From the IMG/VR virus record IMGVR_UViG_3300038410_000117, positions 1 to 38,163 of that record: a DNA stretch of 38,163 bases; one strand, given 5' to 3'. The notes beneath the pieces are model-generated. The model saw only the letters and a program-made list of their open reading frames with translations. It was not told the origin of the DNA and made no database searches. Both the position numbers and the translations under genes were made by a program. This DNA comes from a virus. Position 1 is the stretch's first letter. Each line of letters begins with the position of its first letter. This document shows, one piece after another, positions 1-31,466 of this stretch.

Positions 1-127
1 ACCGGACCAGATCAGCGTCTCGTCAATCGACTTGATCTCCCGGTACCGAGGCCCTCCAAGGAAGTATCGGAGGCCATCCCAACCGCACTTGATGAGCAGA
101 CGCCCGTCCGGCCACTTCATGTACGGT
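1..127. repeat. Terminal direct repeat identical to 38037-38163 (assembly overlap of a circular or terminally redundant genome; unique length 38,036 bp)
   Basis: Read directly: accggaccagatcagcg...cttcatgtacggt occurs at both window ends. 127 nt is a common de Bruijn k-mer size. Confidence 0.95.
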
Positions 128-252
128 CGGACGAAGACGCCAGCGACGGGCTCCGCGTCATCGCGAATCGATTCGATCGGCTCGACTTCTCCGTCGCGTG
201 GCGGATCGTCGCGTTCGTTCACGCCATCGTCGATCTCCAGCCTCCAGTCCAT
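1..252 (-). CDS. Hypothetical protein (90 aa) crossing the circular junction: ATG at 252-250, continues 1 -> 38036, stop TAA at 38018-38016
   Basis: My translation: MDWRLEIDDGVNERDDPPRDGEVEPIESIRDD...KSIDETLIWSGHPDGNY*. Absent from the ORF track because it is cut by the window edge. It starts 11 nt after the stop of the upstream gene. Confidence 0.5.
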   Translation of the reverse strand, partial: MDWRLEIDDGVNERDDPPRDGEVEPIESIRDDAEPVAGVFVRPYMKWPDGRLLIKCGWDGLRYFLGGPRYREIKSIDETLIWSG

Positions 253-263
253 GCGCGAGGTGA

Positions 264-539
264 TCACGTCCCCTCCTTCTCCTCGTAGTAGCGAAGCTGC
301 TTGTACATCAGGATCGCGAGCCTGTTCTTCCTCCGGTATTCGGCGGCCTTCGTCAACACGCGCTCGGAATGACGCTCGTAGTGCGCGCGCTCGCGCGCCC
401 GCTGGCAGGCGAGGCAGCGGCCGTACCCGCGCGCCTTGTTCGAGATCACGGTGTTCTCCGCCGTCCTCGGGTGCCCACACGGAAACTTGAGATCGCCGCG
501 CACTGGCCTCGGATCAGGAACTCGTTCCATCGGACTCAC
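264..539 (-). CDS. HNH / His-Me-finger-like zinc-binding protein (91 aa, GTG start)
   Basis: ORF-track protein contains KFPCGHPRTAENTVI...GRCLACQRARE (C-x-H...N...CxxC), the pattern of small phage HNH-type proteins. Confidence 0.5.
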   Translation of the reverse strand: MSPMERVPDPRPVRGDLKFPCGHPRTAENTVISNKARGYGRCLACQRARERAHYERHSERVLTKAAEYRRKNRLAILMYKQLRYYEEKEGT

Positions 540-576
540 TGTTTCGTTCTCTCCTTGGCTCGTTGAGCCTCGGGGA

Positions 577-1041
577 TTACTCGAACCGAACGACGAGTCG
601 CTTCGAACCGGTCTCCGCGAATCTCATGAGCGTCGAGACGTTCGGGAAATTTCCCTCCCGCAGCATCCGGTTCAGCGATTCGGAGCGCACCCCGAGCCTC
701 GCTGCAAACTCGGAATGCGACAATCCGCTTGCGAGAACGACTTCCCGCATCGCTCCCTGGAGCGCCGCTAGGAACTCGTAGTCCGCGTTGCTGTGCTTGG
801 TGAATCCGCGCAATGGTTCCTCCTCTTGTTCTGGATGATCTTCCGTCAGATGCCAGCCACGCAATTTTGCGTACTGGCGGAACTTCTCCTCGGGCCACTG
901 GAGCGTGAATCCGATTTCAGGTGGCACGGCAAAGATCGAGCCCGCGAACACGATGACGCGAAGCGGGAACAGAAACGAACGGTGCGCCACGCGGATCGAC
1001 TGGACGTCAGTTGATTCCACCGCTTCGCTCATCAGCGACAC
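577..1041 (-). CDS. XRE-family helix-turn-helix protein (154 aa)
   Basis: C-terminal LASGLSHSEFAARLGVRSESLNRMLREGNFPNVSTLMRFA is a typical XRE/HigA-like HTH. The N-terminal half is unassigned. Confidence 0.6.
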   Translation of the reverse strand: MSLMSEAVESTDVQSIRVAHRSFLFPLRVIVFAGSIFAVPPEIGFTLQWPEEKFRQYAKLRGWHLTEDHPEQEEEPLRGFTKHSNADYEFLAALQGAMREVVLASGLSHSEFAARLGVRSESLNRMLREGNFPNVSTLMRFAETGSKRLVVRFE

Positions 1042-1222
1042 TCAGGACGTGAATCGCTTCCCGAAGACGTTCCAGTTCCTCGACAAGCGCGATCATCATG
1101 GTGACGTGCGCCGTCGTTAGGGCCATGATCGCCGCCGCTGGTGCCCCTGCTTTGGTCATGAAGTCCGAGTCGCCGAGCATGGCTTCGATTTCCCTCAGCA
1201 TCCGTTCTTGTTCGGAGGTCAT
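1007..1222 (-). CDS. Hypothetical protein (71 aa)
   Basis: Internal start MTSEQERML chosen because its ATG overlaps the upstream stop (TGATG). Confidence 0.5.
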   Translation of the reverse strand: MTSEQERMLREIEAMLGDSDFMTKAGAPAAAIMALTTAHVTMMIALVEELERLREAIHVLSVADERSGGIN

Positions 1223-1533
1223 CAGTAGTTTCCCCAACGCGGAATCCAGCGCCAGTTGTGCGCCATCCAGTCCTTGAATCCGAGCAGCAACACGCTAAAG
1301 CCGAGGCCGCCGTAGCCGACCAACGTTAGATCGTGCGCGAGTGACCGATTGATCGCTGAAAGCAGCAGACTGATCACGAACGCAACCATTGCAGCGACCG
1401 ACGACACGATCCTGACACTCGCGATCGTGATGTGACGTTCATTAATGGCGATCTCATTCTCGATCGTCGCCATCATCGTTTCATGCGCGACTCTGAAATC
1501 CTCAAGAAGCGTTTCCATTTCCTCGCGCGTCAT
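1222..1533 (-). CDS. Small membrane protein (103 aa, two hydrophobic helices)
   Basis: MTREEMETLL...VSSVAAMVAFVISLLLSAI...LVGYGGLGFSVLLLGF. The ATGA start/stop overlap with the upstream gene sets the start. The longer track ORF would run through tRNA-Arg. Confidence 0.6.
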   Translation of the reverse strand: MTREEMETLLEDFRVAHETMMATIENEIAINERHITIASVRIVSSVAAMVAFVISLLLSAINRSLAHDLTLVGYGGLGFSVLLLGFKDWMAHNWRWIPRWGNY

Positions 1534-1811
1534 CCGGGAGGCGGCTTCTGAGGCATCGCCTCGAACGCACTCCAGGCGAGCCGAACCCACGGTAGCGTCT
1601 TCTGAATGAAGAGAGTTCCCGCCCGCGCCCGCGCTCCCGTTTTCTCCGCCTCCATCAGTGCCCTCATTCCTACCGCCCATAGCTCGCTCCAGGTAAGGGA
1701 TCCGAGATGATCCAGGTAGAAATCGATCGTCCCTTCGGTCAGAGGCCGCTTCATCCGAGCCTGCGCCTCGGTAATGAGCCGATGATAGTCCTCGACTTGA
1801 ACCTCGTTCAC
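1530..1811 (-). CDS. Hypothetical protein (93 aa, GTG start)
   Basis: GGAGG lies 4 nt upstream of GTG (VNEVQVEDYHRL...). The N-terminal extension in the track overlaps tRNA-Arg and is rejected. Confidence 0.5.
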   Translation of the reverse strand: MNEVQVEDYHRLITEAQARMKRPLTEGTIDFYLDHLGSLTWSELWAVGMRALMEAEKTGARARAGTLFIQKTLPWVRLAWSAFEAMPQKPPPG

Positions 1812-1823
1812 AGCGCCTCCACA

Positions 1824-1900
1824 TGGTGGCCCCGGTGGGACTCGAACCCACAGCCTCCGGGTTAGAACTCCGGTGCCGGTTCCAGTCCGGCTACGGGGCC
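1824..1900 (-). tRNA. tRNA-Arg (anticodon UCU), CCA encoded
   Basis: Hand-folded reverse complement: GGCCCCG-TA-GCCG...CGGC-A-CCGGA-GTTCTAA-CCCGG-AGGCT-GTGGG-TTCGAGT-CCCAC-CGGGGCC-A-CCA. There is an A31-C39 mismatch in the anticodon stem. Confidence 0.8.
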
Positions 1901-2084
1901 GAACGCTGAAGGACTTCCTAGCCGCAGCCACCACGCCGAGCGCGGGCCGGACGACGCGCCCGCCCCGAATCCTTCGATCTGGGTCACGTTGACGGTGGGT
2001 TTGGAGCAGCTTTCCCCTTTCGACGTTGCGCTTTGAGCTAAGAATCGTTCAGCCCTGAGCGCTGATCTTTCATTCGCACGATAC

Positions 2085-2154
2085 GCAGATGGGCTCCCAC
2101 TACCCTATCCCCCCGTCAAGTGGGGGGACCAGGATTCGAACCTGGGCAATCTGC
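2085..2154 (-). ncRNA. Circularly permuted tRNA-like element: 3' half (2154-2121), 6-nt linker (2120-2115), 5' half (2114-2085), with termini in the anticodon loop
   Basis: Minus strand reads GCAGA-TTGC-CCAGG-TTCGAAT-CCTGG-TCCCCCC-A / CTTGAC / GGGGGGA-TA-GGGT-AGTGGGA-GCCC-A-TCTGC. Acceptor pairs 7/7, T stem 5/5, anticodon stem 5/5, D stem 4 bp including one G-U. Confidence 0.6.
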
Positions 2155-2253
2155 ATGTATGAGCATGGCTTTGAAGGCCAGCCCGACCACAGTGTGGTCG
2201 GTGCTCAGAAAGATCGCCTGTTGACTCGCTTCGCTGCCGAAAGTCCTCCGTTT

Positions 2254-2903
2254 TCAGATTTCGATGGTCGTCGTCGCGTTGATCAGGCTCAGTTTGCCGT
2301 CGAGTTCGCCCAAGACGGCTTCCATCTGCTCGATCTTCGCGATCAGTTCGCTCTCCTTCAGGTGGACGACGACCTCGCCCTTCTCGCCACTCGGCGAATC
2401 GGTTACCTTGAGGCCCTTTTTGAACATCTCCTCGCGATTCCGAACGATCGAGGAGTGAAGCCGTTGAAGATGGAGCCGTTCCGGCTCCGAAACCTCACGG
2501 CGCCAGTTCAGCCACTCGGCCACGGTGCGCGTCGTTCCCGCTACGGTGGCGGCTTCTTCCCCGATCGTTCTCGTCGCACCCGGAATCTTCGGCATGATCG
2601 CGGGAGTCGTCGTCTTCCTGATCGGCTAAGCCCGATCTCAGCGAGAAATCGTGCCGCGGCCGTCACAAGATTCTGTTGCTGGATGGCCGTTCGGATCGAG
2701 ACGATCCGCTTCTGGAGGTCGTCGATCGCTTGCGTCTCCTTCCGGATGAACTCTTCGGACCCGCCTTCGCTCTCCATCGGGTCCTTGATCCGTGAGTCGC
2801 GCATCAGATTCGTCCCGATCGACTCGCGCTTCTTCTGGAGACGCGCATTGATCGTCTTGATCTCAGCGAGCGCTTCGGTGATCGTTAGCTTCGTTGAAGC
2901 CAT
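2254..2903 (-). pseudogene. Coiled-coil protein gene (restorable to about 181 aa) split into two out-of-frame ORFs by a composite insertion
   Basis: ORF 2541-2903 (MASTKLTITEALAEIKTINARLQKK...) and ORF 2254-2595 (...TVAEWLNWRRE...ELDGKLSLINATTTIEI). Deleting 104 nt (for example 2554-2657) gives a continuous ...IQQQNLVTAAATVAGTTRTVAEWL... . The layout reminds me of DIP1984-family proteins; this is unverified. Confidence 0.7.
2552..2657. repeat. Composite insertion of three exact inverted copies of other loci: 2552-2591 = rc(22965-23004), 2589-2628 = rc(31396-31435), 2630-2657 = rc(5482-5509)
   Basis: Direct base-by-base comparison. The first two segments share a 3-nt overlap (tcg). One unmatched nucleotide (2629) lies between the second and third. 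Confidence 0.9.
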
Positions 2904-3132
2904 CGGTCGCGTCCTCTTCTTCGTAGTTGCGGCAAAGCCGCGTCTTGAACAGCGGATCGAAAACCAAGGGGTAGAGGAATCCTTTGCCGCGCATCGCAAT
3001 CGGATCGCCCGTCATCTGGCTATCCGGCTGAAGGCACCGGATGCGCCCGTTCGATCCTGGAAGCGACATCCGATGCACGCACGTCCAGCATTCGGTCTCA
3101 GGATTTCTCTTCGCCTCGTTAATCTTCCTCAT
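2863..3132 (-). CDS. Cys-rich hypothetical protein (89 aa)
   Basis: GGAGAAGG Shine-Dalgarno upstream of the ATG. Product contains ECWTCVH...RCLQ...LCRNY. Confidence 0.5.
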   Translation of the reverse strand: MRKINEAKRNPETECWTCVHRMSLPGSNGRIRCLQPDSQMTGDPIAMRGKGFLYPLVFDPLFKTRLCRNYEEEDATDGFNEANDHRSAR

Positions 3133-3334
3133 CGACCTTCTCCAGACCGAGGCGGACTAGCTCGGTCAAGATGCGCCCGATCCGTGGATGCCCTCGCGGC
3201 GTCGGCTTGAGAATCCGTTCCGCCATGATCCGGATTCGGTCCTCCTCGGCCGCCGTGAGATAGAGCGTCGCCTGCTGGCGGCGGGGACGGCTCGAAGCCT
3301 TCTTCCGGACGCGTCGCTTCCTCGCGCGCTTCAC
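3119..3334 (-). CDS. Ribbon-helix-helix (CopG/Arc-like) regulator, 71 aa, proposed leaderless GTG start
   Basis: C-terminal part of track ORF 3119-4141: basic tail, then ATLYLTAAEEDRIRIMAERI...RIGRILTELVRLGL (strand-helix-helix pattern). The rest of that ORF is antisense to better + strand genes. Confidence 0.55.
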   Translation of the reverse strand: MKRARKRRVRKKASSRPRRQQATLYLTAAEEDRIRIMAERILKPTPRGHPRIGRILTELVRLGLEKVDEED

Positions 3335-3341
3335 CCGAAAG

Positions 3342-3370
3342 AGGCTAGCCAATCGCTTCTCGCAAGTCAA
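3342..3370 (-). promoter_or_regulatory. Candidate leftward sigma70-like promoter TTGACT-17-TAGCCT
   Basis: -35 is rc of 3365-3370 and -10 is rc of 3342-3347. Predicted TSS near 3335, one nt before the GTG at 3334. The -10 is weak. Confidence 0.3.
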
Positions 3371-3393
3371 GGGGAAAATGCTCGATATTTTGC

Positions 3394-3422
3394 TTGACGA
3401 TTCAGAGGCGCGCTGATAGGAT
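3394..3422 (+). promoter_or_regulatory. Candidate rightward sigma70-like promoter TTGACG-17-TAGGAT
   Basis: -35 at 3394-3399 and -10 at 3417-3422. Predicted TSS near 3429, 2 nt before the ATG at 3431, which has no Shine-Dalgarno. Confidence 0.4.
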
Positions 3423-3430
3423 TCCCTTCC

Positions 3431-3814
3431 ATGAGCCCGAAGCGGCGGTTCCGGCGGGAAGTGCTTCCGAGCAACGGATTCACGTACCAGATCGAGAAGA
3501 AGAACGTCGATGAACTCGGTCAGCCGTCGGAACCGCTCGTCACGCTCATCATCAATGTCGATCTGCCCGACGATCTTGGGACGGCGCAGATTCACGTTGG
3601 GATGGAGGCGAGCGACTTCAAACGGTTCGTTCGGGATGCGATGGAGGACATCTGGCGGATTCAGTACGAGACACCGAATGTCCAAATTCCGGACGGAACC
3701 ACTGATTGCGCTTCGTGCGGCGGAATCGGCACTACGGAGCAGGGTGATGCCTGCGCCGATTGCAATGGCACGGGTCGCATCGAAGCGAAGATCATCGACC
3801 CAGGATTGAACTAG
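3431..3814 (+). CDS. DnaJ-type zinc-finger (CxxCxGxG x2) protein, 127 aa
   Basis: Product contains CASCGGIGTTEQGDACADCNGTGRI. Confidence 0.65.
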   Translation: MSPKRRFRREVLPSNGFTYQIEKKNVDELGQPSEPLVTLIINVDLPDDLGTAQIHVGMEASDFKRFVRDAMEDIWRIQYETPNVQIPDGTTDCASCGGIGTTEQGDACADCNGTGRIEAKIIDPGLN

Positions 3815-3826
3815 GAGGGGAAGGAA

Positions 3827-4027
3827 ATGCCACTCTTCGAAGTCGCCATCTTGAAGCAGCCGACGCAGAAGGAAATTGAAGACGGGGCCGTCGAGGAACT
3901 CGTTCTCGGTCCGAAAGCCGTCATTGCAAAAGACGAACAGAGTGCCGCGATCGCTGCCGCGCTCTCGGAGGGGAAACCGATCCCCGACATGCAGCGATGC
4001 ACAGTGATCGTTCGCCCTTTCGCGTAG
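3827..4027 (+). CDS. Small hypothetical protein (66 aa), paralog of 4474-4692
   Basis: GGAGGGGAAGGAA precedes the ATG. FEVAILKQPTQKE...AKDEQSAAIAAAL...RCTVIVRPF aligns with YEVAAIERPTQAA...ANGRSAAIAAAAAL...RTTWIVRKF. Confidence 0.65.
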   Translation: MPLFEVAILKQPTQKEIEDGAVEELVLGPKAVIAKDEQSAAIAAALSEGKPIPDMQRCTVIVRPFA

Positions 4028-4473
4028 CCCCGCGACTTCGGAGCGCCGCTCAAGTCGCCGAAGGGGCGAACGCGAACGTCCACAAGATGGCTCGGGAAAT
4101 GGAGAAGGAGAAAGCGCGTGGATGGACGGTTTCGGCGGCACCGCACGCGGCGGCGACCTTCACCGGCCAGAATCTTTTCGCGTTGACGCAGGCAGCCGGT
4201 AAAGCGGTATCCTGACGCCAGCGCCGAACACGCGCGACCGGGCCTCGTCTTTCGATTTTGCTCATGGACGGGCACGATCATCGTCCCTACTCGGTCTCGA
4301 TTCGAACGGGCGCGAGCGGACGCGCGGCTGACGAGGCTCAAAGCTGAGAACGCGAAGAGCGGGCTTCGCGATCATGAGGTCGTGTCACTGAGGGCACGGC
4401 TTCTCGGAGGGCGGTCCCGCAAGAAGCCGCCCTCCACCAACTCGATCTCTCAACGAGAGAGGAGAAGATTTCT

Positions 4474-4692
4474 ATGGAGACGTGCTACCTGTACGAAGTG
4501 GCCGCAATCGAGCGGCCGACCCAGGCGGCGGCAGAGCAGGGCGAACTCGCCAAGGTCGTTCTAGCGCCTACGACCGTCCTCGCGAACGGCCGTTCGGCCG
4601 CGATCGCAGCGGCTGCTGCGCTGATCAAGACGACCTACGAGCCGCAGCGGACGACCTGGATCGTTCGTAAGTTCGTGGGCGACAATCTGTAA
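4474..4692 (+). CDS. Small hypothetical protein (72 aa), paralog of 3827-4027
   Basis: GAGAGGAGAAG lies upstream of the ATG. Paralogy as described for 3827-4027. Confidence 0.65.
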   Translation: METCYLYEVAAIERPTQAAAEQGELAKVVLAPTTVLANGRSAAIAAAAALIKTTYEPQRTTWIVRKFVGDNL

Positions 4693-4771
4693 ATCCTCGG
4701 GCCAGGGGTAAGACCGAGGAACCGTGGGCGGGGGCGATTCCAAGGCCCCCGCCCCGTCACGGAGGCCAAGG

Positions 4772-5137
4772 ATGGCTGACAAGACGCAGATCGATCCAAT
4801 CGAGCAAGACAGTCTCCTCCTTCGTCTCCACGATGATCTCCTTCTCGTTCAGAAGCGCCTCGGCGGCCTCGAACTAATCCAGACGCAACTCTCCGTTCTG
4901 GAGCGCCAAATCAACACCCTCACGATTCTCGCTAGTCGAACCTTCGATGCTGGCCTTCCCTCTGAGGCGAAAGCGGCGGAGCGAGAACGCGCAAAGGAAC
5001 TCGCTGCGGACATGGCCAAGAAGTGGGAAGAGCAGATGAATTCGACGCTCAAAGAGCGCGCTGCTCGCGGAATCCCGAATGATGGGGACGCCGTCACCGA
5101 ACAGGACTTGGCCGATGCGGCCCGCGAATTCGCGTAG
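4772..5137 (+). CDS. Coiled-coil hypothetical protein (121 aa)
   Basis: Internal start MADKTQIDP follows GGAGG. A 10-bp GC hairpin (4726-4754) lies just upstream. Confidence 0.6.
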   Translation: MADKTQIDPIEQDSLLLRLHDDLLLVQKRLGGLELIQTQLSVLERQINTLTILASRTFDAGLPSEAKAAERERAKELAADMAKKWEEQMNSTLKERAARGIPNDGDAVTEQDLADAAREFA

Positions 5138-5145
5138 AGGTGAGA

Positions 5146-5733
5146 ATGGAGTCACACCCCGTTGAGATTGTTCGAATTCCCGAAGGCGAGTCGGGAGCGC
5201 TCGAAGGGCGGCTCACGGAACCGGTCCTCGAATCGATCGCGTCCCTCTGGTCGCTCCCACGATCCGCCCGAAGAGCCGCCGGGGTCGAGCCCCTCGACGA
5301 CGCCGGAGTGGCCTTCCTGGCCGAGCGCTTGGGAGTCACCCGAGGATTTGTCCGAAAACAGCAGCGAAACCCCAAGGTCCTCGCCGCCATCCGAAAGCGA
5401 TGCATCGAAGCCGTCACCTTGATGATGCCCGACGTGATCGAGGCGCAGCTTAGACTGGCCGTCGTCATGCATGACACGAAAGCGGCACGATTTCTCGCTG
5501 AGATCGGGCAATTCTTGAAGACGGGGATGTCGGTTCAGCAGACCGTCGGGGTCAATGTCGCGCTTCAGTCCGGATCGGCCAAGGATGGCCATATTTCCGA
5601 GGACTCCGAGAACCTCGCCTGGCTGACGCGCATGCGTCGGTCCGGGGAACTCGATCGAATCTGCGCCTCGGTGATCGTCGCGGAAGACGATGGACCTGAA
5701 CGAATCGAATCCGCAAGCCAGCCAACTCCGTAG
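5146..5733 (+). CDS. terS: Putative small terminase subunit
   Basis: Sits immediately upstream of and overlapping terL. HTH-like LAERLGVTRGFVRKQQRNPKV. GAGG lies 5 nt before the ATG at 5146. Confidence 0.5.
   Translation: MESHPVEIVRIPEGESGALEGRLTEPVLESIASLWSLPRSARRAAGVEPLDDAGVAFLAERLGVTRGFVRKQQRNPKVLAAIRKRCIEAVTLMMPDVIEAQLRLAVVMHDTKAARFLAEIGQFLKTGMSVQQTVGVNVALQSGSAKDGHISEDSENLAWLTRMRRSGELDRICASVIVAEDDGPERIESASQPTP
5482..5509. repeat. Source copy (28 nt) of insertion segment 2630-2657
   Basis: gcggcacgatttctcgctgagatcgggc is in frame inside terS (AARFLAEIG). Confidence 0.9.
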
Positions 5734-7213
5734 AATCCAAGAAGCGCAAGAGCGCCGCCCCTGGCGCTACTACGCGCCCGTTCCAGTCCTTCGCGACGGA
5801 TTCCACAAATCGACGGCGAAGATTCGTCTTCTGACTGGACCGAACGGAGGCGGAAAGACATGGGCTGGAGCGTACGAACTGCTCTCCTATGCGACTGGAT
5901 ACAACCACATCCGGGATGAGCACTATCCGACGCCCAATGTCTGCTGGGCCGTCGCACTCGATCACCAGAACCTCGGCCCGATCATGCGCCGTACGGTGAT
6001 CTCGATGGCGCCGAAAGGCTCACACTTCGTCGCGAAGGAGATGAAGCTGATCCTTCCGAAGCCTTGGGGCAGCGAAATCTACTTCAAGGCGTGCGAGTCA
6101 GGCGTAGAGAAGTTCATGGCCGAGCGATGTCTGGCAATCTGGTTCGACGAGGAGTGGCCGGGAGAGGAGGGCCTTCGAATCTTCAAGGAGTCGCTCCGCC
6201 GCACGAAACCGGGCTGGCCCCTTCGCCTCTACATGACGCTGACTCCCGTCTTCGGGTACACCTGGACGTACGACTACCTTTGGCGCGAGGACTCGCCGCG
6301 TCGTTTCCGTGGCGTCGAACGCTTCAACTTCAACCTCTACGACTGCGCCCAAGCGAAGGGCGGGTTCCTCACGCAGGAGGAAATCGAAGATCGGGAACAG
6401 AACCTCGATCCGTACGAGCGACAGGCTCGGCTCATGGGCGAATACACGCTCGTCGGTGGAACGCCCGCCTTCGATCCGTCTCATCTGATGCGCGCACTCG
6501 ATCGTTGCGTCGCCGGAAAGCGCTATCGAATCAAGACAGCCGGACTCCGTGACGGCCTAGCGGCACCACTTCTGGAGGAAGACCCCGATGGACCGCTCCA
6601 CATCCTCGTCCGACCAGTCCGAGGCCGCCAGTACATCCTCGGAGGGGACCCGGCAATGGGAATCCGGCAGGACTCCAGCGTCGCCTCTGTCTGGGACCGA
6701 GAACTCCCCGTTGAAGTTGCCTATTTCTCTGGAAACGACGTGGACCCCGCCCAGTTCGCCCGAGATGTCGTGGCTCCCCTTGCGACTTTCTACAACAACG
6801 CGCTGGCGGCGATTGAGGCGAATTCTCAGGCCGGAGGCGCAGTCCTAGCCAATCTCCAGGGCGTGTACGGCCATCTCTATATGCGCCAAGATTTTGAGGC
6901 TAGGAAACGGGAGTTCAGCAGCCGCTACGGGTTCTGGACGAGCGACCACAATCGCGGCCTTCTCTTCTCGACCTTGAAGGCATCGCTTCCGATGGAGCAG
7001 TTCACCCCGAGCGAAGGCCTGATCCGCCAGATGATGAACATGATCGTGACGGAAAAGGACAGGATCGATCACATGCGCGGGCGGCATGATGATCATGTTC
7101 TCGCGGCAGCCATCGCCCTGACCGTGAATCGGCTCAATCCGACGCCGCGCTATGAGCCCTGGGGCTTCTACCGGGAGACCTACAAGGGCGAGAACGCCTG
7201 GATGGGAAATTGA
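5690..7213 (+). CDS. terL: Large terminase subunit
   Basis: Walker A LTGPNGGGKTW, Walker B-like LAIWFDEEW, C-terminal nuclease-type HMRGRHDDHVLAAAIAL. 507 aa. Confidence 0.9.
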   Translation: MDLNESNPQASQLRRIQEAQERRPWRYYAPVPVLRDGFHKSTAKIRLLTGPNGGGKTWAGAYELLSYATGYNHIRDEHYPTPNVCWAVALDHQNLGPIMRRTVISMAPKGSHFVAKEMKLILPKPWGSEIYFKACESGVEKFMAERCLAIWFDEEWPGEEGLRIFKESLRRTKPGWPLRLYMTLTPVFGYTWTYDYLWREDSPRRFRGVERFNFNLYDCAQAKGGFLTQEEIEDREQNLDPYERQARLMGEYTLVGGTPAFDPSHLMRALDRCVAGKRYRIKTAGLRDGLAAPLLEEDPDGPLHILVRPVRGRQYILGGDPAMGIRQDSSVASVWDRELPVEVAYFSGNDVDPAQFARDVVAPLATFYNNALAAIEANSQAGGAVLANLQGVYGHLYMRQDFEARKREFSSRYGFWTSDHNRGLLFSTLKASLPMEQFTPSEGLIRQMMNMIVTEKDRIDHMRGRHDDHVLAAAIALTVNRLNPTPRYEPWGFYRETYKGENAWMGN

Positions 7214-7309
7214 TTGTTGACAGCTTGGTTCGCACAGTAGCAACGTGCCGCCGCAAAGGGCGACGGATCGCCCGCCACCTTACCTCGAAGGGACTGGGAA
7301 GCGCCAAGG

Positions 7310-9211
7310 ATGGCCGATCCCCGGACGTATACTGACGGCACGACCGAGCTAGCGGCCTTCAAGTACGGGAAGGCCCTTCTCGATTCCGCACGGTCTCAAG
7401 CGCGCCACTTCACCGCCACAGCCTATGAGGACCTCAGATTCGCCCTGGGGGAGACCCAGTGGCCGACGCCTTCGAGCTATCGTGCCTGGTTCGCGGAACG
7501 CTGGAAGAACCGAAGCGTCCGGAACTACACCTTCGCGACGATCCACTACAAGGTCGCGATGTGTACGCAGGCAGAGCCCTCCATCCGCTGCGTCGCGCTC
7601 GATGAACTCTCCACAGCAGAAGAGCGCGCTTCGATCGAAGCAGCCGTCACGCACGAACTCGATCGGCTCCGATGGCGCGACTACATCCACGACGCCATGT
7701 TCGACGGCGCAGTCATGGGGAAGGGAATCATCCACGTCTACCCCATGCGTGACGATTTCACCGGGATGTACTACCTGAATCTCGAATCCGTCGATCCGAG
7801 CCGCTACTACCCCGATCCCGCGAAGTCGAAGCTGAAGGAAGCCCGGTATCTCGTCTACGAACCGGAACTCGACATGGCGATGATCCGGAAGATGTTCCCG
7901 GACACCTGGCAAACGGTGAAGCCGAAGGACAAGACGATTGGTCGGCTCGGTGACATTCAGTACTCCCGCACCGATGACGAGATCATCTACGGACCGGCCA
8001 CTGGGGAGATCACGGTCACCAAGGACGGGTATCTTGCCGAGCGGAAGGCGAACGTGGCCTTCATCTGGATCAAGGACCCGACCGTCGTTGATGACTTGAA
8101 GACGGTCCTCGACCAGCCTCCGACTCCAGGGTTCAAGTGCGCCGACTGCGGAAATGACTTCACGGCGGACGGAGCCGCATTCAGTCCTCCGACGGAACGA
8201 ACCATGCCGCGCTGTCCGGAATGCATGAGCGCGAATCTCACTCCGATGATGACCCCGCCCCTCTTCACGGTTCTGAAGGACCGGGCGCGGCTCTACCCCT
8301 TCGGGCGACTGATCGCGCTCACAGATAGCGGACTCCTCTATGACGGGCCGAGCGAATACGAACTGTCTGGCGTCTTTCCGTTCGTCGAGTACAACCACTA
8401 CCGGATTCCCCGGCGATACTGGGGCTACGGCGACGTAGCGCTCTGCAAGAGCCCGCAGCAAGCGTTGAACAAGCACATCTCCCAAGCGATCGACTACATG
8501 CGCCTAGCCGGGAACTCCCCGATGGAAGTCCCCGCCGAGGTCCAGGCGTATCGCCATCTGGGAACGATCCCTGGGGACACGATCCCGGTTCCGGCCGCAT
8601 TCATGGGAATGGCGCGCTACCTCTCGCCTGGCGGGTACAACGCGATGTTCCATCAAGTTCTAGACCAGGCTCTTCTCATGGATTTCCAGCGGACGACCGG
8701 CGTCACGGACGTGGCAAGCGGGATCGCGCCGAACGCCCCGACTTCCGGGATTGAAGTCCAGTCGCGCCAGGCGGCAGCGAACACGCGACTCGGAGATCAC
8801 ATGCGCGAACTCAACAGCACGAGTTCCGATCTCGCGAGCATCACCTACGAAATGATGCATCAGTTCTACACGGAGCCCAGGGCGTTCTCGGCTCCGACTC
8901 CCAATGGCGAACTCTATCCGATCGCGATGGAAGTCGCGCAGCTCCCCGTCAACGTTTCCGTCGTCGTCACGGCTTCGCTCGACAAGCAGCAGAAAGACAA
9001 CCTCTTCGGGCAGAACCTCATGGCCGCCGTCCAATCCGGACAGATTCCGTTCATGCCGGACCTCATGCTCCCGATGATGGGCGGAGATCGAGAGACGTCG
9101 CGCGAGATCGCCGATCGCGCACAGCAGGCCCAACAGCAACTTCAGGCGGCGAGCGCGCAGCAAGCGCTTCTGCCCGGCCCTCAACCCGCAGCGGCCCCGG
9201 AGGCAGGATGA
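7310..9211 (+). CDS. Portal protein (633 aa) with an inserted CxxC...CxxC zinc ribbon
   Basis: Position directly after terL, size, Q/A-rich acidic C-terminus. Zn ribbon is FKCADCGNDF...PRCPECMS. Confidence 0.7.
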   Translation: MADPRTYTDGTTELAAFKYGKALLDSARSQARHFTATAYEDLRFALGETQWPTPSSYRAWFAERWKNRSVRNYTFATIHYKVAMCTQAEPSIRCVALDELSTAEERASIEAAVTHELDRLRWRDYIHDAMFDGAVMGKGIIHVYPMRDDFTGMYYLNLESVDPSRYYPDPAKSKLKEARYLVYEPELDMAMIRKMFPDTWQTVKPKDKTIGRLGDIQYSRTDDEIIYGPATGEITVTKDGYLAERKANVAFIWIKDPTVVDDLKTVLDQPPTPGFKCADCGNDFTADGAAFSPPTERTMPRCPECMSANLTPMMTPPLFTVLKDRARLYPFGRLIALTDSGLLYDGPSEYELSGVFPFVEYNHYRIPRRYWGYGDVALCKSPQQALNKHISQAIDYMRLAGNSPMEVPAEVQAYRHLGTIPGDTIPVPAAFMGMARYLSPGGYNAMFHQVLDQALLMDFQRTTGVTDVASGIAPNAPTSGIEVQSRQAAANTRLGDHMRELNSTSSDLASITYEMMHQFYTEPRAFSAPTPNGELYPIAMEVAQLPVNVSVVVTASLDKQQKDNLFGQNLMAAVQSGQIPFMPDLMLPMMGGDRETSREIADRAQQAQQQLQAASAQQALLPGPQPAAAPEAG

Positions 9212-9459
9212 ACAAATCACTCGACACGCTCGTCGCGCGTCGGCAGCAAATCCGAAAGGGGCGGGCGACGCCGAATCCGATCAGCGTCGAGACGTTCCTA
9301 GCGGCCGGACGAGGCAGAACCGGAAACTGGAAGGCAAGCGAAACCGGAGCTACAACGCTCGCGCAGAGGCGTGCTCAGTACAGTTCGGAACGGAAGATGA
9401 TGGACACAGCCGGAAAGGGGACGAGGTCCTTCGAGGACTACATCCAGAAGGGAAGGTGA
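9208..9459 (+). CDS. Hypothetical protein (83 aa)
   Basis: ATGA overlap with the portal stop. Confidence 0.5.
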   Translation: MNKSLDTLVARRQQIRKGRATPNPISVETFLAAGRGRTGNWKASETGATTLAQRRAQYSSERKMMDTAGKGTRSFEDYIQKGR

Positions 9460-9710
9460 TCGAGGTGGCAATCGAAGTTCCTGGCCAGACGGGCCAGCCG
9501 CCGATGGAAGTCCAGGGGCCGTCGTTCGACACGATGGGATGGGTTCACTCGACGAATCCGAACACGGACTACGCCGAGGGAAACCCGCTTCAGGACACAT
9601 CCCCGACGATCGTAAAGGCATGGTCGAACGCGGACCAGACCATGAGCGCAGAGAACACGTCGAATGCGATCAACGGTGGTGCCGACATGATCGGGAAGGG
9701 CGGTGTCTAG
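9456..9710 (+). CDS. Hypothetical protein (84 aa)
   Basis: Start overlaps the upstream stop. Same operon phase pattern as neighbours. Confidence 0.5.
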   Translation: MIEVAIEVPGQTGQPPMEVQGPSFDTMGWVHSTNPNTDYAEGNPLQDTSPTIVKAWSNADQTMSAENTSNAINGGADMIGKGGV

Positions 9711-9991
9711 TGTCGATTACGAGCCCGAAGGAATTCGCGCTGGATGCGACGTTCGACACCCTCGTCGGAGGCAGTTCTGGCTTCCAGTTCGAGACGGAGA
9801 CGCCTCCCGATGCTCCGTCAGGGGCCGTGATGAACGGACCGCAGCAACCCGCGATGACGCCGACGGAGACGGTGGCACTCGCAGTCAAGAAGGCCAACGG
9901 TTTTCAGGACCAGGCGTCAGCCGACGGCGACGCCGACCCGAAGTGGAACCAGTCGCCCAAGTCGGACGAGTGGCCCGGCGACTACCGCTAG
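9710..9991 (+). CDS. Hypothetical acidic protein (93 aa, GTG start overlapping the upstream TAG)
   Basis: Frame of track ORF 9539-9991: VSITSPKEFALDATFDTLVGG... . The competing ORF 9703-9999 is Arg-rich and looks like a frame artefact. Confidence 0.45.
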   Translation: MSITSPKEFALDATFDTLVGGSSGFQFETETPPDAPSGAVMNGPQQPAMTPTETVALAVKKANGFQDQASADGDADPKWNQSPKSDEWPGDYR

Positions 9992-10009
9992 GGAACTAAG
10001 GAGAGCGTG

Positions 10010-10948
10010 ATGGAAGACTTCGAACTGACGGGCGGTCAATCCTCGAATGCGGAGGACACCCTACCTGATCAGGGAGGCGATGCGGCGGCAGCAGCGCCGG
10101 AACCCGAGTTCGTGGAAATCAAGAACCGCGACGACGCCTGGAAAGTCGAGAAGGACCTTTTCGAGAGTGTCGCCGACAGACTCGGTATGGACGTAGACCG
10201 TCTTCGTCGAGCGGTTCAGATCGGCCTGGACGGTGCCCGCTTGTACGAGGAAGTCAACGACGAGCGGAGTCGTCTCGCAGCCGCGTGGGAGGAACTGGCG
10301 CGCACGCGCCCGAGAGAGGAAGACCCGGCTCGTCCGGCCTATCCGCCTCAACCGGGCCAGCGTCCTACGCAGCGTCCTCCGGCTGAGGATACGACCGGCA
10401 ACCTGTTGTGGCTCGCGGAACGCTTCGAGAGTGTCCTTCCGAACATCGAACGCGTCTCCAAACTCGAAGAGATGCTTGCCGAAACCCAGAACCGATTCGC
10501 CCAATCCGAAGAGGCGCAGCAAGCCTCAGAGGAGAAGGCAATCGCGATCTCGGCGTACGAGGACGTCAAGAACGAGTGGAAGAAGCAGGGGTTCGGCGAT
10601 CTTCCATCGCGAGGTGAACTCGAACGCGCACTTCGGAGATTCCCGATCACGGACGACGTCGATCTGACATGGCACGAGGTCTGGGATCAGATCGGCTGGA
10701 TGACGGCCGGGCCGATGGTGGCGCGACGCCAAAGACGGCAAGCTGTCCTCGACAACCAGAACCCCAAGGCACGATTCACCGTTCCGGCGAACCAGGCTGT
10801 CGGCCCGACAGGGCCGCGACCTGCGGCCAGGGAGGCCGATGGGACGGACAATGCCGCCCTCGATCGTGAGTACGAGGAGCTATCGCGGCAGATTCCGGAC
10901 AATGCGACTCTGGCCAACGTCTACGGCGATCGGCGCCCGATGAGGTAG
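10010..10948 (+). CDS. Putative scaffolding protein
   Basis: Acidic, Pro/Gln-rich and coiled-coil, located directly upstream of the capsid gene. AAGGAGAG lies 5-6 nt before the ATG at 10010. Confidence 0.55.
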   Translation: MEDFELTGGQSSNAEDTLPDQGGDAAAAAPEPEFVEIKNRDDAWKVEKDLFESVADRLGMDVDRLRRAVQIGLDGARLYEEVNDERSRLAAAWEELARTRPREEDPARPAYPPQPGQRPTQRPPAEDTTGNLLWLAERFESVLPNIERVSKLEEMLAETQNRFAQSEEAQQASEEKAIAISAYEDVKNEWKKQGFGDLPSRGELERALRRFPITDDVDLTWHEVWDQIGWMTAGPMVARRQRRQAVLDNQNPKARFTVPANQAVGPTGPRPAAREADGTDNAALDREYEELSRQIPDNATLANVYGDRRPMR

Positions 10949-10955
10949 CTGATCC

Positions 10956-11816
10956 ATGATTGATGTCACCAAAGCCGGTGCATTCATCCCGACGTTGTGG
11001 GAGAACCGGATTCAGTACGCGGGCAACAACCGCCGTGGACTGACCCGACTCATCAACGATACGGGATCGCGCTGGTTCGGACCGGGCGGAACGATCAAGT
11101 GGCCGATCATGCAGGTCTGGCCTGCTGCGGTCGCGCTGGCCAACCCGCTCGTCGTTCAGGACACCGCCCAGAACATCGGGTCCTCGGACATCACCCCGTC
11201 GGTGATCACCACCTACGCTCAACTCCAAGAGCCCGCCGCGCTCACGGGTCTCAAGGACCTCATCCCGGTCTACGCCCCGACAATGGCGGAGTCGCTCTAC
11301 CAGAAGATCGACGTCGACATCGCCACGCTCTTCCAGTCGGCCGTGGCCTCGGTCGGCGGCGCGGTCGAGTGGAACGAAGGAGACTTCCTTTCGGGAATCT
11401 CTACGCTCCTCGGAAACGGCGGCGACAAGGTCGAGATCGGCAACATCTACGGCGTCTATCACACGGCGAAATGGGACGCCATTCTGGCCACGGGCAACAT
11501 CGTGAGCGCTGCGATCCGTGGCGAGACGAACAGCGCTGCCAAGACCGGAATCGTCGAGATGGCGTACGGCGTGAAGCTCTTCTTCACGAAGAACGTCACG
11601 ACCTCGACGACGCTCCGGAACGCCATCTTCGTTCGCGACGCGATCTGGATGGCACGAAAGAACCGGCCGAAGATCGAGCTAGAGCGCGATCTTCACAACG
11701 GAATGGTCACGAAGATCGTCGGTTCGACGATGTATGGCGTCGCGTACCTCCACAAGAGCACGACGCCCCAGTTCTCGTCGGACCTCCTGGTCGCGCACCT
11801 GACGACCACCACCTAG
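10956..11816 (+). CDS. Major capsid protein (HK97-fold type), 286 aa
   Basis: Position after the scaffold, size, and typical N-terminus (AGAFIPTLWENRI...). Followed by a GC hairpin. Confidence 0.75.
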   Translation: MIDVTKAGAFIPTLWENRIQYAGNNRRGLTRLINDTGSRWFGPGGTIKWPIMQVWPAAVALANPLVVQDTAQNIGSSDITPSVITTYAQLQEPAALTGLKDLIPVYAPTMAESLYQKIDVDIATLFQSAVASVGGAVEWNEGDFLSGISTLLGNGGDKVEIGNIYGVYHTAKWDAILATGNIVSAAIRGETNSAAKTGIVEMAYGVKLFFTKNVTTSTTLRNAIFVRDAIWMARKNRPKIELERDLHNGMVTKIVGSTMYGVAYLHKSTTPQFSSDLLVAHLTTTT

Positions 11817-11825
11817 TAAGGGAGG

Positions 11826-11852
11826 GGCGGGCACTTCCACGAGGCGCCCGCC
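11826..11852 (+). terminator. GC hairpin after the capsid gene (GGCGGGC...GCCCGCC), possible attenuating terminator
   Basis: 7-bp stem read directly. No U-tract follows. Confidence 0.3.
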
Positions 11853-11859
11853 TACCAAA

Positions 11860-12837
11860 ATGGAAGACTTCGAACCAGAAACGATCGAGCCAGCGATTCG
11901 CGTCGTCGACGATCCGCGAGAAATCGATCCGAACCAGCTTCCGTCGCATCTTCAGCCGAATCGACGGGCCAGTTTCAAGCATTCCGATGGGCCGCACGGC
12001 ATCATCGGATACGATCGGTACACGCTTCGGATGTACCGATGGAACGGCTATCACGGGAAACCGCTCAAGGTGCCTCCTGCATTCCTGAAGGTGGCGCAGC
12101 CCGAGATCGCGACGTGCTCGGAACCGGGGACGCACGGAGGAAGGAATCGCGGTTGCGAATGCTGGAACGGATGTCCCTATGCCGGACATGGCCCGTTCCA
12201 CGCGATCATGAAGCATCGCGATGTCGAGACGCTTCGTACTCCGACTCAGTGCTACAACATCTGGACCGGATTCAATCCGGACGGGAGCCCGGCGCAACAG
12301 ATTCACATGCTCCTGGACGGCTGGATGGTCGACACATCGAGTCGAACGGTCCCGTACGTGACGACACGCGCCGAGAAGCTGCCGGAAGGCGGCTGGAAGC
12401 GCATGCGGTACGCGGGCGAGTACGAGGTCAAGGACCTGGGGCCGATGTACTCATCGACTCCTCCGGCCGTACTCAAGCCGGAAATCTGCGTCGGCGAGGT
12501 TAGCCTGAACGATGCACTGGCGAAGTGGACGGCGCCGACCAAGGCGGAGGTACAGCAAAGTGTCGATCGAGCGGGTACACCTCGGGAAGGAACTGCGGCA
12601 CCAGGAGGACCCGAAGACGGGTCTCCCGATGGAACACGAGCCCCTGGTGGAAACCGAGGTCTACGAGGACAGGGCAACGGGCGGAGACGTACAGGCGCTA
12701 CTCGGGGAGATGCGGGAGGCGTCGCAAGTCCATCTCCAGCAGGCGTACAACCGAGAACAAGCGTTCGGCGTAGCGGAAATCAGCGACCCGGACGGAAGAC
12801 CGGTCCGCGTCCTGGGAAACGAAATCGAGGCGTATGA
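11860..12837 (+). CDS. Cys/His-rich hypothetical virion-module protein; the last 278 nt overlap the next gene out of frame
   Basis: MEDFEPETIEPA...GCECWNGCPYAGHGPFH... . After about 12560 the product becomes R/G/P-rich while the +1 frame carries the high-GC3 signal. Confidence 0.5.
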   Translation: MEDFEPETIEPAIRVVDDPREIDPNQLPSHLQPNRRASFKHSDGPHGIIGYDRYTLRMYRWNGYHGKPLKVPPAFLKVAQPEIATCSEPGTHGGRNRGCECWNGCPYAGHGPFHAIMKHRDVETLRTPTQCYNIWTGFNPDGSPAQQIHMLLDGWMVDTSSRTVPYVTTRAEKLPEGGWKRMRYAGEYEVKDLGPMYSSTPPAVLKPEICVGEVSLNDALAKWTAPTKAEVQQSVDRAGTPREGTAAPGGPEDGSPDGTRAPGGNRGLRGQGNGRRRTGATRGDAGGVASPSPAGVQPRTSVRRSGNQRPGRKTGPRPGKRNRGV

Positions 12838-22345: not shown

Positions 22346-25300
22346 GTGGCCGATCCCAACGACTTTCTTCTAGGCCGCCAAAGCCGACCTAGCGTCCCGG
22401 CCCTCGCGCCGGACGCGAACGCGTTCCTGAGCGGTGAAGCAAGCCCCCCGCCGAGCCGCCAGGACGCGAATTCCTTCCTTTCCGGGCAATCTGCCGCACC
22501 TGCGCCTCCGAGCTTCCTAGAGGCCGCCGGACGCGGCCTGATGGGCACCCTGGGTGAGATCGGAAGCCGATACGAGGCTTCGAAGGCGAACCTGATTTCG
22601 GCGATCATTCGATCTGGAGTCAGCCCGGTGGGTTTCGTTCCCGAGGTTCCAGCGCCGCAGATGGTTCAGGCTGGTAAAGAATTGGCCGGTGCGATCCCGG
22701 CCGGGCTGGACAAAGAGGTCACAGCCGTTCCTGGTCCCGCTGGCGGTCCCATTCGTCCTGAGACAGCGACGGCCGATCTGCTTCGGTCCTATGGATTGAA
22801 TCCGCTGGTTCCTGAGACCTGGCAGGTCGCGGCGGACGCTATCGCGAAGGCTACGGGTCTGAGAATTCCGATCGGCTCGCTTGCCCGGTTCATCGCCGGT
22901 CCGGAGGGAGCGAGTTTGGCCCTCGACCTTCCGGTGGGAGAACTGGCGAGCGGAATCGGAGCAGCGAAGATTCCGGGTGCGACGAGAACGATCGGGGAAG
23001 AAGCTAAGATTCTAGGTTCTATGATCGGCGAACCAATCCGAGCGACGAAGATTGGAAAGGCGATCGAAGCCGTCTCCCAAGGTGGAGGCGTGCCGGCCAA
23101 GATCGAGGGCGTGGCGGCGCCGAACGCTCGGGAGACGCTTCGCGGCATGCTCATGGATGCCTACGGTGAGAAGGCCGTCAGGGATGCCGCGCTCCAGGAG
23201 GCGATCCGACCGATCGAACAGACGATCAAGGACACCGCGAAGGCTCGTGGGATCAGTGAAGTCGCCCAGGCGAAACGGCTTCGCGATGCCGTCGAGGAAC
23301 TGCCGCGCCTCAAGGGAGCAGCGACCGAGGGCTTCACACAGGCCGAACGAGACGCAGTCGCCGCGATGACGAAGATCAGTCGTGCGACACCGAGAGAACG
23401 ACTCGCTGCTGGCCTCCGTCCGTTCGAACTAGGGGGACACGTTCCCCCGCTCGCCAAGAACGTCGAAGCCGCTGTCGCGAAGTTCGAAGCCGAAAAGGCG
23501 GGCCTTCAGACGCTCAAGGAGATCGGTCCGCGCGGCGCGAAACTCAAGAGCCAGATCGCGAAGGCGAAAGGCGAGGGCGTTGCAGCCAGGGAAGAACTTG
23601 CACGGTTGGCCCGCGTCGCGTCTACCAAAGCGACAGCCAAAGCTGAACTCGGCGGTGTTGACCTTCTCCAGGAGTTGGGTTCGGGCCGAGCCGCAACGCG
23701 GCTTCAAACGAATCGCGCGAATCGTGCTCTCGCAGAGGCGGAGCAGGCCCTATCCGAAGCCAAGATTCCGAAGGGAGAGCCGCACGCTCCGATCGTCGCC
23801 GAAAGAGCAAAAGCCGCGCGTGACGCGATCCAGTTCGCGGACGAGAAAATCAAGGGACTGTCGGCCCTCGCGAAGAGGGACCGATCCGTCGCCAGGCAGA
23901 TCGAGCGCGTTCGCGTCGCCAAAGGCGAAGCGGTTCAGGCGATCAAAGCGTTCGAGGCGAAGAGCGGAATTCGAGTCCCGAGACGCGGAGAGGCCGAGGT
24001 CGCGGCTGGACTGCGTCCCCCCGAGAATGCTCCGAAGATCGAACTCAAGGCTGCCGCTCGTGTAGCTCGCAACTATCGTCGCCGGATGATCGCTCATACG
24101 CCTCGCGAGTCCACCGAAGCGCTCCGCGCCTTGAGCACGAACAAGTATGTGCGTGAACGGCCCTACGGAGGTGGAGGGATTCCGAGGGGCCTCACGACCA
24201 AGATCGGCAAGCGTCGTGTCTCGCTCCCCGTCACAGCCACGAAGGAGATCGAACGTCGGCTGGCGCCGCATCTCGGCAAGGAGGAAGCGTTCGCTCCCGT
24301 TACCGAAGGTTATCTGAAGTCGGGATACCGAACGAATCGGGCCATCGCGCACATCGATTTGGCGAACAACGTGGCTCGCACGTTCGGCCGCGCGACAGAA
24401 GAGGCGCCGAAGGACTGGGTCGAACTCGGGAGTCTCTCAGGACTGAAGGCCGGAGCAATGAAAGAGACGATCGCGCGGCTTAACACGATCAAAGTCCACC
24501 CTCGCATTTTCGACACGCTCGAAGCTGTCTCGAAGAACCTAGAACCTCAGAACTACGGGAAGATTCAGGCCTTCGCGAACTCAGTCGTGCGGATCGTCAA
24601 GCCATTGTACACCGTCGTCAATCCGGGCTTCGTCGTTCGAAATCAAATCTGGAACGTCATGGTGACAGCCAGCCGTGGGAACCGCGACCTGACCGCCTGG
24701 ACGAGAGCCGCTGACGTCCTGTCGAAGACAGCGCCGGACGAGACCCTGGCTGGATTCAAAGTCACGAAGGCTACGTTCCTGAAGCAAGCGATCGAGGACT
24801 CGATCGTGACTGAGGCTGGCGTGACCTCGGGCGAGTTCGGCACGCGCGTTGGCAGACGGATCGGCGAGACACAGGCGCACTGGCTTCGGACGTATCCGGA
24901 GTGGATGAGTCGCGCTAACTCGGTCGGTGAGAACACCGCCCGGCTCTCTCACTACATCTGGTCGCTGGAGCGCGGGATGACGCGAGCCCAGGCGCGGCTC
25001 GAAGTCGCACGAACGCTTTTCAACTACTCGCGCGACGCCTTCACTGTTCTTGAGAATCAGGCTCGCCAGTACATCCTTTTCTACTCGTGGTACCGGCGAA
25101 TCTATCCGCTCACGCTTCGCACCGCGCTGGAGCGGCCTGGCGAGATCGCGAAGTTCGCGACAGCGGTCAATAACATCAACGCCATGCAGGGCGTGGCGCC
25201 GATCGAAGCCGCCTACCTCGCGCCCTCCTACTTCGATGCTGTCGGAATCGTTCTTCCGCCGAGCGATACGCAGCCGGAGGGTACCAGGCGAGTGATCCTG

Positions 25301-25894: not shown

Positions 25895-26183
25895 TGGTCG
25901 CTGGTGGCGCACGCCTTCGTTCTCAGTCGAGGACATCATCAAGTGGGCGATGCTCATGGGGCCGCTCGCCTTGTTCTGGGCGACTCTGTGGATCGACGTG
26001 CGTGACATCAAGCAGTCGATGAAGGGCGTCGCAACGAAGCGATGGGTCGGCGCCCTGGTTCGCGGGAGCAACTCCATCCATTCAGACCTTGATCGTAGGT
26101 TAGACAAGCTGGAGCGCAATCCTCACACGCCACTTCCTCCGCTTCGAGTCCCGGACAAGGATGATGAACTTGAAAGCGAGTGA
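25872..26183 (+). CDS. Holin-like membrane protein (103 aa, GTG start)
   Basis: One hydrophobic helix (IIKWAMLMGPLALFWATLWI). GGAGGAGG upstream. Lies directly before the endolysin. Confidence 0.45.
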   Translation: MAEEASRNGRWWRTPSFSVEDIIKWAMLMGPLALFWATLWIDVRDIKQSMKGVATKRWVGALVRGSNSIHSDLDRRLDKLERNPHTPLPPLRVPDKDDELESE

Positions 26184-31275: not shown

Positions 31276-31277
31276 AT

Positions 31278-31364: not shown

Positions 31365-31466
31365 TCATCGATTCCGACTTCTCCGACCGAATGCGTAGCC
31401 GATCAGGAAGACGACGACTCCCGCGATCATGCCGAGCGGAAACGCTTCGATCGGCGTCGGATTCAT
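31365..31466 (-). CDS. Possible 33-aa membrane peptide (below the track length cutoff)
   Basis: ATGA overlap with the upstream stop. MNPTPIEAFPLGMIAGVVVFLIGYAFGRRSRNR. Contains the source of insertion segment 2589-2628. Confidence 0.4.
   Translation of the reverse strand: MNPTPIEAFPLGMIAGVVVFLIGYAFGRRSRNR
31396..31435. repeat. Source copy (40 nt) of insertion segment 2589-2628
   Basis: tagccgatcaggaagacgacgactcccgcgatcatgccga compared directly. Confidence 0.9.

Follow-up and report, generated by a model that had tools for sequence, protein, structure and literature searches.

Patchwork filler DNA, also described as templated insertions, is known at repaired breaks from plant NHEJ, from Pol-theta-mediated end joining and from human MMBIR/FoSTeS. 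Error-prone filler repair of this kind is well described in plants, in animals and in a few bacteria. In Streptomyces ambofaciens, I-SceI breaks were healed with inserts of 30, 42 and 83 bp that match the genome perfectly and sit at the break scar together with microhomologies or untemplated bases (PMC5869714). [quoted passage not shown] Chimeras of similar appearance are produced by MDA: 85% of them are inverted and 77% have at least 2 bp of complementarity at the junction, whereas chimeras joining positions more than 10 kb apart are infrequent and have complementary junctions in about a third of cases (PMC1855051). A full-text literature search found no published account of patchwork filler DNA in phage genomes.

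Here we analyze a viral DNA stretch of 38,163 nt (IMG/VR record IMGVR_UViG_3300038410_000117; hereafter, the window), in which a conserved gene is interrupted by a short block made of pieces of the same genome. The block is like filler DNA in that short tracts from several ectopic loci are joined head to tail with overlaps of 0-3 nt and an odd, apparently untemplated base; in addition, the donors are intact, there is no target-site duplication, and the insert occupies one point of an otherwise unchanged sequence. It differs from known filler DNA in being part of a phage genome from a metagenome, in having donors 3-20 kb away rather than beside the break, and in being a single event known here from one assembled sequence. 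The bacterial setting and the short, perfectly matched genomic inserts are shared with S. ambofaciens, but there single pieces were inserted into a chromosome with Ku/LigD, while here three concatenated pieces lie in a phage (PMC5869714). As in MDA chimeras, the segments are inverted and have short complementarities; unlike the block, with its four junctions in 106 nt, such chimeras usually have one junction, span less than 10 kb and consist of long tracts (PMC1855051). Finally, pieces of 28-40 nt that match a phage genome recall CRISPR arrays and virus-borne mini-arrays, from which the block differs by its lack of repeats, the unequal sizes of its pieces, its own-genome target, its location inside a coding sequence and the lack of recognized cas genes among the phage proteins tested.

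Results

The block consists of three inverted copies of other parts of the genome

The coordinates of the block, its pieces, their sources and other features of the window are collected in Table 1. Base-by-base comparison confirmed the presence of three exact inverted self-copies, as had been reported in an earlier note on this DNA, and none of the three matches can be extended by even one base at either end. The pieces have the size of CRISPR spacers (28-40 nt) and, as the note had pointed out, no repeats lie between them: they abut, and no repeat family was found nearby. All three have the same, inverted, polarity. With three pieces, this would occur with a probability of 1/4 if orientation were random, so uniform polarity is weak evidence.

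Table 1. Features of the 38,163-nt window
Feature	Position	Strand	Description
Inserted patchwork block	2552-2657		106 nt as matched; three abutting exact self-copies
Segment A	2552-2591		40 nt; exact reverse complement of 22965-23004
Segment B	2589-2628		40 nt; exact reverse complement of 31396-31435; TCG common with A
Single A	2629		matches neither source; untemplated addition or miscopy of the next C of source B
Segment C	2630-2657		28 nt; exact reverse complement of 5482-5509
Source A	22965-23004	+	within 1182-aa ORF 22346-25894, late (+) gene block
Source B	31396-31435	-	within 33-aa membrane-peptide ORF 31466..31365
Source C	5482-5509	+	within 197-aa ORF 5140-5733, directly upstream of the large terminase gene
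Interrupted gene	2254-2903	-	DIP1984-like, PHROG 1491 accessory protein; 181 aa when restored
Split ORF 1	2541-2903	-	120 aa; block encodes the last 36 residues and part of the codon at the junction
Split ORF 2	2254-2595	-	113 aa; block encodes residues 1-14 and part of codon 15
Large terminase	5690-7213
Portal	7310-9211
Endolysin	26161-26670
tRNA array Cys(GCA), Tyr(GTA), Leu(TAG), Leu(CAA)	31017-31362	-
tRNAs Arg(TCT) and Met(CAT)	1824-1900 and 27055-27131	-	six tRNAs in total

To judge how unusual such matches are, the whole window was compared with itself in both orientations (k=14). Long self-matches were limited to the three of the block and a 127-nt overlap of the window ends. The next longest, of 20 and 19 nt (both direct, between 31250 and 31722), correspond to the tRNA-Leu pair and a short repeated motif, and all others were of at most 16 nt. 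In 100 first-order Markov simulations the longest self-repeat measured 15-23 nt; in the real genome it is 40 nt, and 20 nt once the block is removed (terminal overlap aside). Hence exact matches of 28-40 nt exceed what is expected by chance, as had been claimed, and the genome contains no further short self-copies of comparable length.

The three donor loci are intact and lie inside uninterrupted ORFs, where the copied segments are part of an open frame, in line with the earlier description. Since the donors are intact and in frame, the segments were copied from their home loci into the block rather than transferred. The start codon of the 33-aa ORF that contains source B overlaps the stop codon of the upstream ORF (ATGA), and the ORF lies just upstream of the - strand tRNA array. 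The names previously given to the two other loci, "terS" (5140-5733) and "giant virion gene" (22346-25894), fared less well than the loci and ORFs themselves, which are as described: the names are based on position, and neither product matched a PHROG, Pfam or NCBIfam family, so that ORF 5140-5733 is a small terminase gene by position only. In the mRNA of the interrupted gene, the copies of A and C have the sense orientation of their source genes and the copy of B is antisense to the 33-aa ORF; the strand bookkeeping of the note was correct in this respect. Because the sources are located in oppositely transcribed genes, the shared polarity of the pieces follows the DNA strand and not the annotated transcripts.

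Several known kinds of element were considered for the block and rejected. It is not a CRISPR array or mini-array: its pieces abut with a 3-nt overlap or one base, no repeat family is present, and no Cas protein was recognized among 41 phage proteins. It is not an insertion sequence or a MITE: the 106-nt unit occurs once, its parts come from three unrelated coding loci, and it is absent from the viral contig collection. A diversity-generating retroelement does not fit either, the copies being 100% identical and no RT having been found.

One junction shows microhomology directly

The junctions were examined individually. Segments A and B overlap by TCG (2589-2591), which is the sole microhomology directly visible; the probability of a 3-nt overlap arising here by chance is about 1/64. 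At the B/C junction, source B continues with cGC where the window reads AGC, so B and C either are separated by a single A that has no template or overlap by 2 nt (GC) after a mismatch. The unmatched nucleotide at 2629 and the TCG overlap are therefore as first described, and the GC overlap is an alternative reading of the former.

At the left edge of the block the flank ...GGTGGCG is followed by segment A, which starts with GC; at the right edge segment C ends with GC and is followed by the flank GGCCGTC. A 2-nt GC overlap of the block with its target can be deduced from restoration of the reading frame. The microhomology proposed in the note thus stands as an observation at the A/B junction, and at the outer edges as a deduction from the frame. 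The net gain of 104 nt can equally well be described as an insertion of 104 nt that shares GC with the target or as one of 106 nt accompanied by the loss of 2 target nucleotides; target duplication is in any case at most 2 nt. Overall, the overlaps amount to 3 nt (A/B, seen), 2 nt (outer edges, deduced) and 0 or 2 nt (B/C), a set of only 3-4 junctions.

The restored target, GGTGGCGGCGGCCGTC (window 2545-2665), places the insertion point in a short (GGC)n run beside CGGCCG. This restored site does not fold better than shuffled sequences (z = -0.19). The position at which an EagI-type enzyme cuts CGGCCG coincides with the right edge of the block. We do not count this as evidence for an origin by restriction: CGGCCG is not avoided in the genome (36 occurrences, about 29 expected), it is still present after the insertion, and its position was noted only post hoc. 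Its proximity to the insertion may be coincidental, or the sequence may be a place of stalling or cutting.

Removal of the block restores a conserved gene

The gene is split into two - strand ORFs, of which the shorter begins with residues encoded by segment A. As had been stated, removing 104 nt, or just the 77 nt of A and B, restores one frame. The product of the 104-nt removal can be aligned with homologues from end to end. The 181-aa protein obtained by removal of 104 nt has 385 database matches at E <= 0.001; among the 120 matches listed, and leaving aside its own 113-aa fragment, the proteins are 172-204 aa long, cover 96-100% and are 48-58% identical. In an alignment with 13 homologues, the junction region is free of gaps except for a single residue in a variable loop. 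The match to PHROG 1491 (E = 1.4e-15) is a single stretch over residues 3-126 that spans the junction (residues 83-85). These data support the conclusion that the block is an insertion into a real gene.

An AlphaFold2 model of the restored protein has a mean pLDDT of 92.2, and of 92 over residues 81-90, which hold the junction. The best solved structure, 3kdq, an uncharacterized protein of Corynebacterium diphtheriae that we take to be DIP1984, was matched with a target-normalized TM-score of 0.78, a Foldseek probability of 1.00 and E = 0.016; the restored protein thus models as a DIP1984-like helical fold. Its nearest viral structural matches are uncharacterized phage proteins. PHROG 1491 carries the label "tail fiber protein", which looks doubtful.

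Two other readings of this region were tested and discarded. A + strand frame of 373 aa (2089-3210) runs without a stop through both gene and block, but homologues support the - strand frame, so the + strand frame is a shadow ORF typical of GC-rich DNA. Programmed translational bypass of the T4 gene 60 type is excluded because 36 sense codons follow the junction (after ...VTAAA) before the first stop; it is also countered by the inserted bases being exact copies of genes and not a dedicated gap. No ribosome-binding site is suitably spaced from the new ATG at 2595. Whether the block is a scar or an artifact, the 113- and 120-aa ORFs should be annotated as two parts of a single DIP1984-like gene of 181 aa.

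Related loci carry the gene uninterrupted

The gene is uninterrupted in all of the 39 related loci that we compared, 37 of them viral and two from MAGs, and none has the block. The MAG contigs (Anaerolineales and Vicinamibacterales) share only the interrupted gene with the phage. A single viral locus (L001) is a genome-level relative. The gene is the sole one common to this phage and 36 of the 37 viral loci and lies outside the structural module; being shared alone in this manner, it behaves as a widely exchanged, mobile accessory gene, and is probably dispensable.

A scan of the 37 viral loci (594 kb) for exact self-matches, with a threshold of 20 nt, gave no inverted ones and no comparable patchwork; the self-matches present are direct, and almost all are tandem or close together. 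Widely separated copies were seen for one exact repeat only, a 32-nt direct repeat in an unrelated 235-kb viral contig (L026; 3332-3363 and 16911-16942), whose copies are 13.5 kb apart and possibly att-like sites or duplicated parts of tRNA genes.

Searches for close relatives of the phage itself were negative. Exact scans of a viral contig collection gave 0 matches both for the A/B junction and for the restored allele; an exact scan of metagenome contigs with the left flank gave 0 matches in a collection that does not contain the source contig itself; and megablast of positions 1-12000 found no match among GenBank phages. The collections searched thus contained no near-identical strain with or without the block. 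A search for the host, using the large terminase and an alignment of the gene family against 185,579 genomes, returned only the two gene-sharing MAG contigs.

The window is a closed genome of a tailed phage

The first and last 127 nt of the window are identical (1-127 and 38037-38163, direct), so the window represents a genome of about 38,036 bp that was assembled into a closed circle. Since 127 is a common largest assembler k-mer, the terminal repeat is probably an assembly overlap, not a biological feature. Both products of the split ORFs are present verbatim in the public JGI/IMG record; hence the block belongs to the deposited sequence. A mis-join by the assembler was rejected as its origin: the junctions share at most 3 nt, far below what joining in a de Bruijn graph requires, from which we infer that the reads themselves must carry the junctions.

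Judging by its genes, the window is a tailed phage. In addition to the gene products of Table 1, we recognized head proteins, an HNH endonuclease, a DnaQ-like exonuclease, a DUF1064 protein and an amidoligase/amidotransferase pair (PHROG, Pfam and NCBIfam). Genes from about 4.5 to 27 kb are on the + strand, the last of them ending at 27009, and the remainder are mostly on the - strand. The listed ORF 30012-31082 overlaps tRNA-Cys, so its true start must be further downstream. A gene for a glutamine-amidotransferase-like protein (332 aa) adjoins one for an amidoligase-like protein with a Cys-rich N terminus (441 aa; 32602-34918, - strand), and the pair may belong to a modification or conjugation pathway. 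The motif TTGCGCGAGGCAGTCAGCT occurs in two full copies (31644-31662 and 31704-31722) and one 14-nt partial copy (31620-31633), all within or beside the small - strand ORFs that precede the tRNA array. Possible interpretations are an operator and an iteron-like repeat.

The composition of the window in short palindromes is uneven. CTCGAG, CCCGGG, CCATGG, GGGCCC, AAGCTT, AGATCT and CAGCTG are absent from the whole window, where 6-16 copies of each are expected, and GCCGGC occurs once (14 expected). By contrast, 370 copies of GATC were counted where base composition predicts 135, and 69 of CGATCG against 12 expected. The missing 6-bp palindromes indicate strong restriction pressure on the genome.

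Discussion

We propose that the block is a recent, one-off insertion made in vivo by serial short copying and has no function of its own, an account that we regard as having roughly an even chance of being correct. The 100% identity of the copies to their sources points to a recent event. A double-strand break or a stalled replication fork would have occurred in the - strand accessory gene, within the run GGTGGCG/GC/GGCCG. Three short rounds of synthesis, of about 26-40 nt, would then have lengthened a free 3' end, each round copying the same strand of another region of the phage genome, probably on other replicating copies, with re-priming through a few complementary bases (perhaps GC, then TCG, then none or GC after a mismatch). 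Once the product had rejoined the far side of the gap, the outcome would be 104 net bases of "filler DNA", a frame shift and the splitting of the 181-aa protein in two. An event in vivo, the lesion that started it, the enzyme involved and synthesis on a template rather than ligation are inferred. No polymerase, ligase, Ku, RT or Cas was recognized with PHROG, Pfam and NCBIfam among the 41 phage proteins, a set that covers the small ORFs in part; because the phage offers no candidate, the enzyme is taken as host-encoded. Against a repair scar weigh its occurrence in a single sequence, the lack of a near-identical strain with or without the block in the collections searched, unambiguous microhomology at only one junction, the failure of anything like it to recur in 594 kb, and the lack of a recognizable polymerase, ligase, Ku or RT in the phage.

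The earlier note had read the block as serial microhomology-mediated template switching, that is, filler DNA. Its view of an insertion and of the direction of copying holds; with the mechanism the data are consistent, and ligation fits them almost as well. In the ligation scenario, phage DNA fragments of 28-40 nt, generated by nuclease degradation (restriction, RecBCD/AddAB-type or CRISPR-type processing), would have been captured and joined into a break in vivo by Ku/LigD-type or alternative end joining. The sizes of the pieces do resemble those of the 30-83-bp inserts at I-SceI breaks in Streptomyces (PMC5869714), an end-joining polymerase could have added the unmatched A at 2629 without a template, and the GC overlap at the outer edges is deduced rather than seen. 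The avoidance of many 6-bp palindromes is strong and suggests that hosts restrict this phage heavily, which makes both fragments and breaks in its DNA plausible. The 3-nt A/B overlap nevertheless favors annealing and priming over blunt joining, though end joining also uses overlaps of 1-4 nt, and the common orientation of the three pieces would be matched by only one in four random sets. On balance, we consider capture and ligation unlikely, while granting it real weight. A chimera made in the laboratory by a polymerase (phi29 MDA or library preparation), which would have dominated the reads and been assembled into the consensus, would explain why all three pieces are inverted and why junction overlaps are 0-3 nt, as in MDA chimeras (PMC1855051). 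A frameshift in a conserved gene, which the block inactivates, is also expected of an artifact, and the contig is a singleton. Such chimeras, however, are processive and have a single junction, whereas the block would require four switches in 106 nt and an exact return to the point of departure (PMC1855051). The jumps would be of 17.6-20.4, 8.4, 12.1-25.9 and 2.9 kb, two of the four exceeding 10 kb even around the circle; a chimeric consensus requires that most independent fragments carry the chimera, yet a closed circle was assembled (127-nt overlap); and a chimera formed by ligation in vitro would not rejoin neighboring bases of one gene. We therefore think an artifact improbable, and rate it no lower because nothing independent confirms the contig.

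Copying from RNA was another option raised in the note. A host RT would have copied fragments of + strand late phage RNA, jumping between templates, and the cDNA would have patched the break. Were the + strand of the block the nascent strand, every template would have been + sense, which for A and C is the sense of the mRNA. RTs can run off a template, add untemplated bases and then jump to another template, and the extra A after segment B fits such a course; moreover, bacterial group II intron-like RTs act in break repair. Source B, on the other hand, is located in a - strand gene beside the - strand tRNA array, so that + strand RNA of it would need about 4.4 kb of read-through past 27009; a read-through late transcript and exposed + strand DNA would both fit + sense templates. 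The repair described for G2L4-type enzymes uses DNA ends and not RNA templates. With no RT domain in the phage proteins tested and with sources transcribed in opposite directions, this option is weakened, and we regard it as very unlikely. By analogy with its described activities, a G2L4-type enzyme could make a scar of this type, although copying of several templates in trans is not among the activities attributed to it in the published outline. Multi-template, Pol-theta-like copying in trans by a phage or bacterial enzyme, or the stitching-back of 30-40-nt restriction or CRISPR fragments, is in our estimate a distinctly small possibility; candidate enzymes for such copying are a G2L4-type RT, a LigD/PrimPol-type polymerase or an enzyme yet to be described. 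In either case the block would be the first natural patchwork filler DNA in a bacteriophage to come to our notice, and would point to a way for phages to survive cleavage by giving up an accessory gene. Least probable of all, to the point where we give it almost no credence, is that the block is functional, with self-derived pieces serving as an antisense regulator or as a guide or decoy cassette that lacks repeats. It is true that the pieces are spacer-sized and perfect copies, and that transcription of the gene includes the block. Against this, there are no repeats, leader or cas-like genes; the only Rfam matches are tRNAs; a conserved gene is destroyed; and polarity relative to the source mRNAs is mixed whichever strand of the block is considered, two pieces being sense and one antisense or two antisense and one sense. 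The exact copies occur only once, with nothing similar in the 39 related loci or alike in the 594 kb scanned, so the regulatory or decoy role that the note had left open is unsupported.

The scar that we propose is of a known kind in a new setting, a bacteriophage. If instead the block is an artifact, it would mean that even closed circular metagenomic phage genomes can hold gene-splitting, multi-junction chimeras. A search for short exact self-copies by self-BLAST is a possible way to mine such scars from viral metagenomes. If the scar is real, the block records, in a natural genome, the error-prone repair of a break in phage DNA within a bacterial cell. It would also suggest that end joining with filler DNA can sometimes rescue phages after cleavage by restriction enzymes, CRISPR or homing nucleases.
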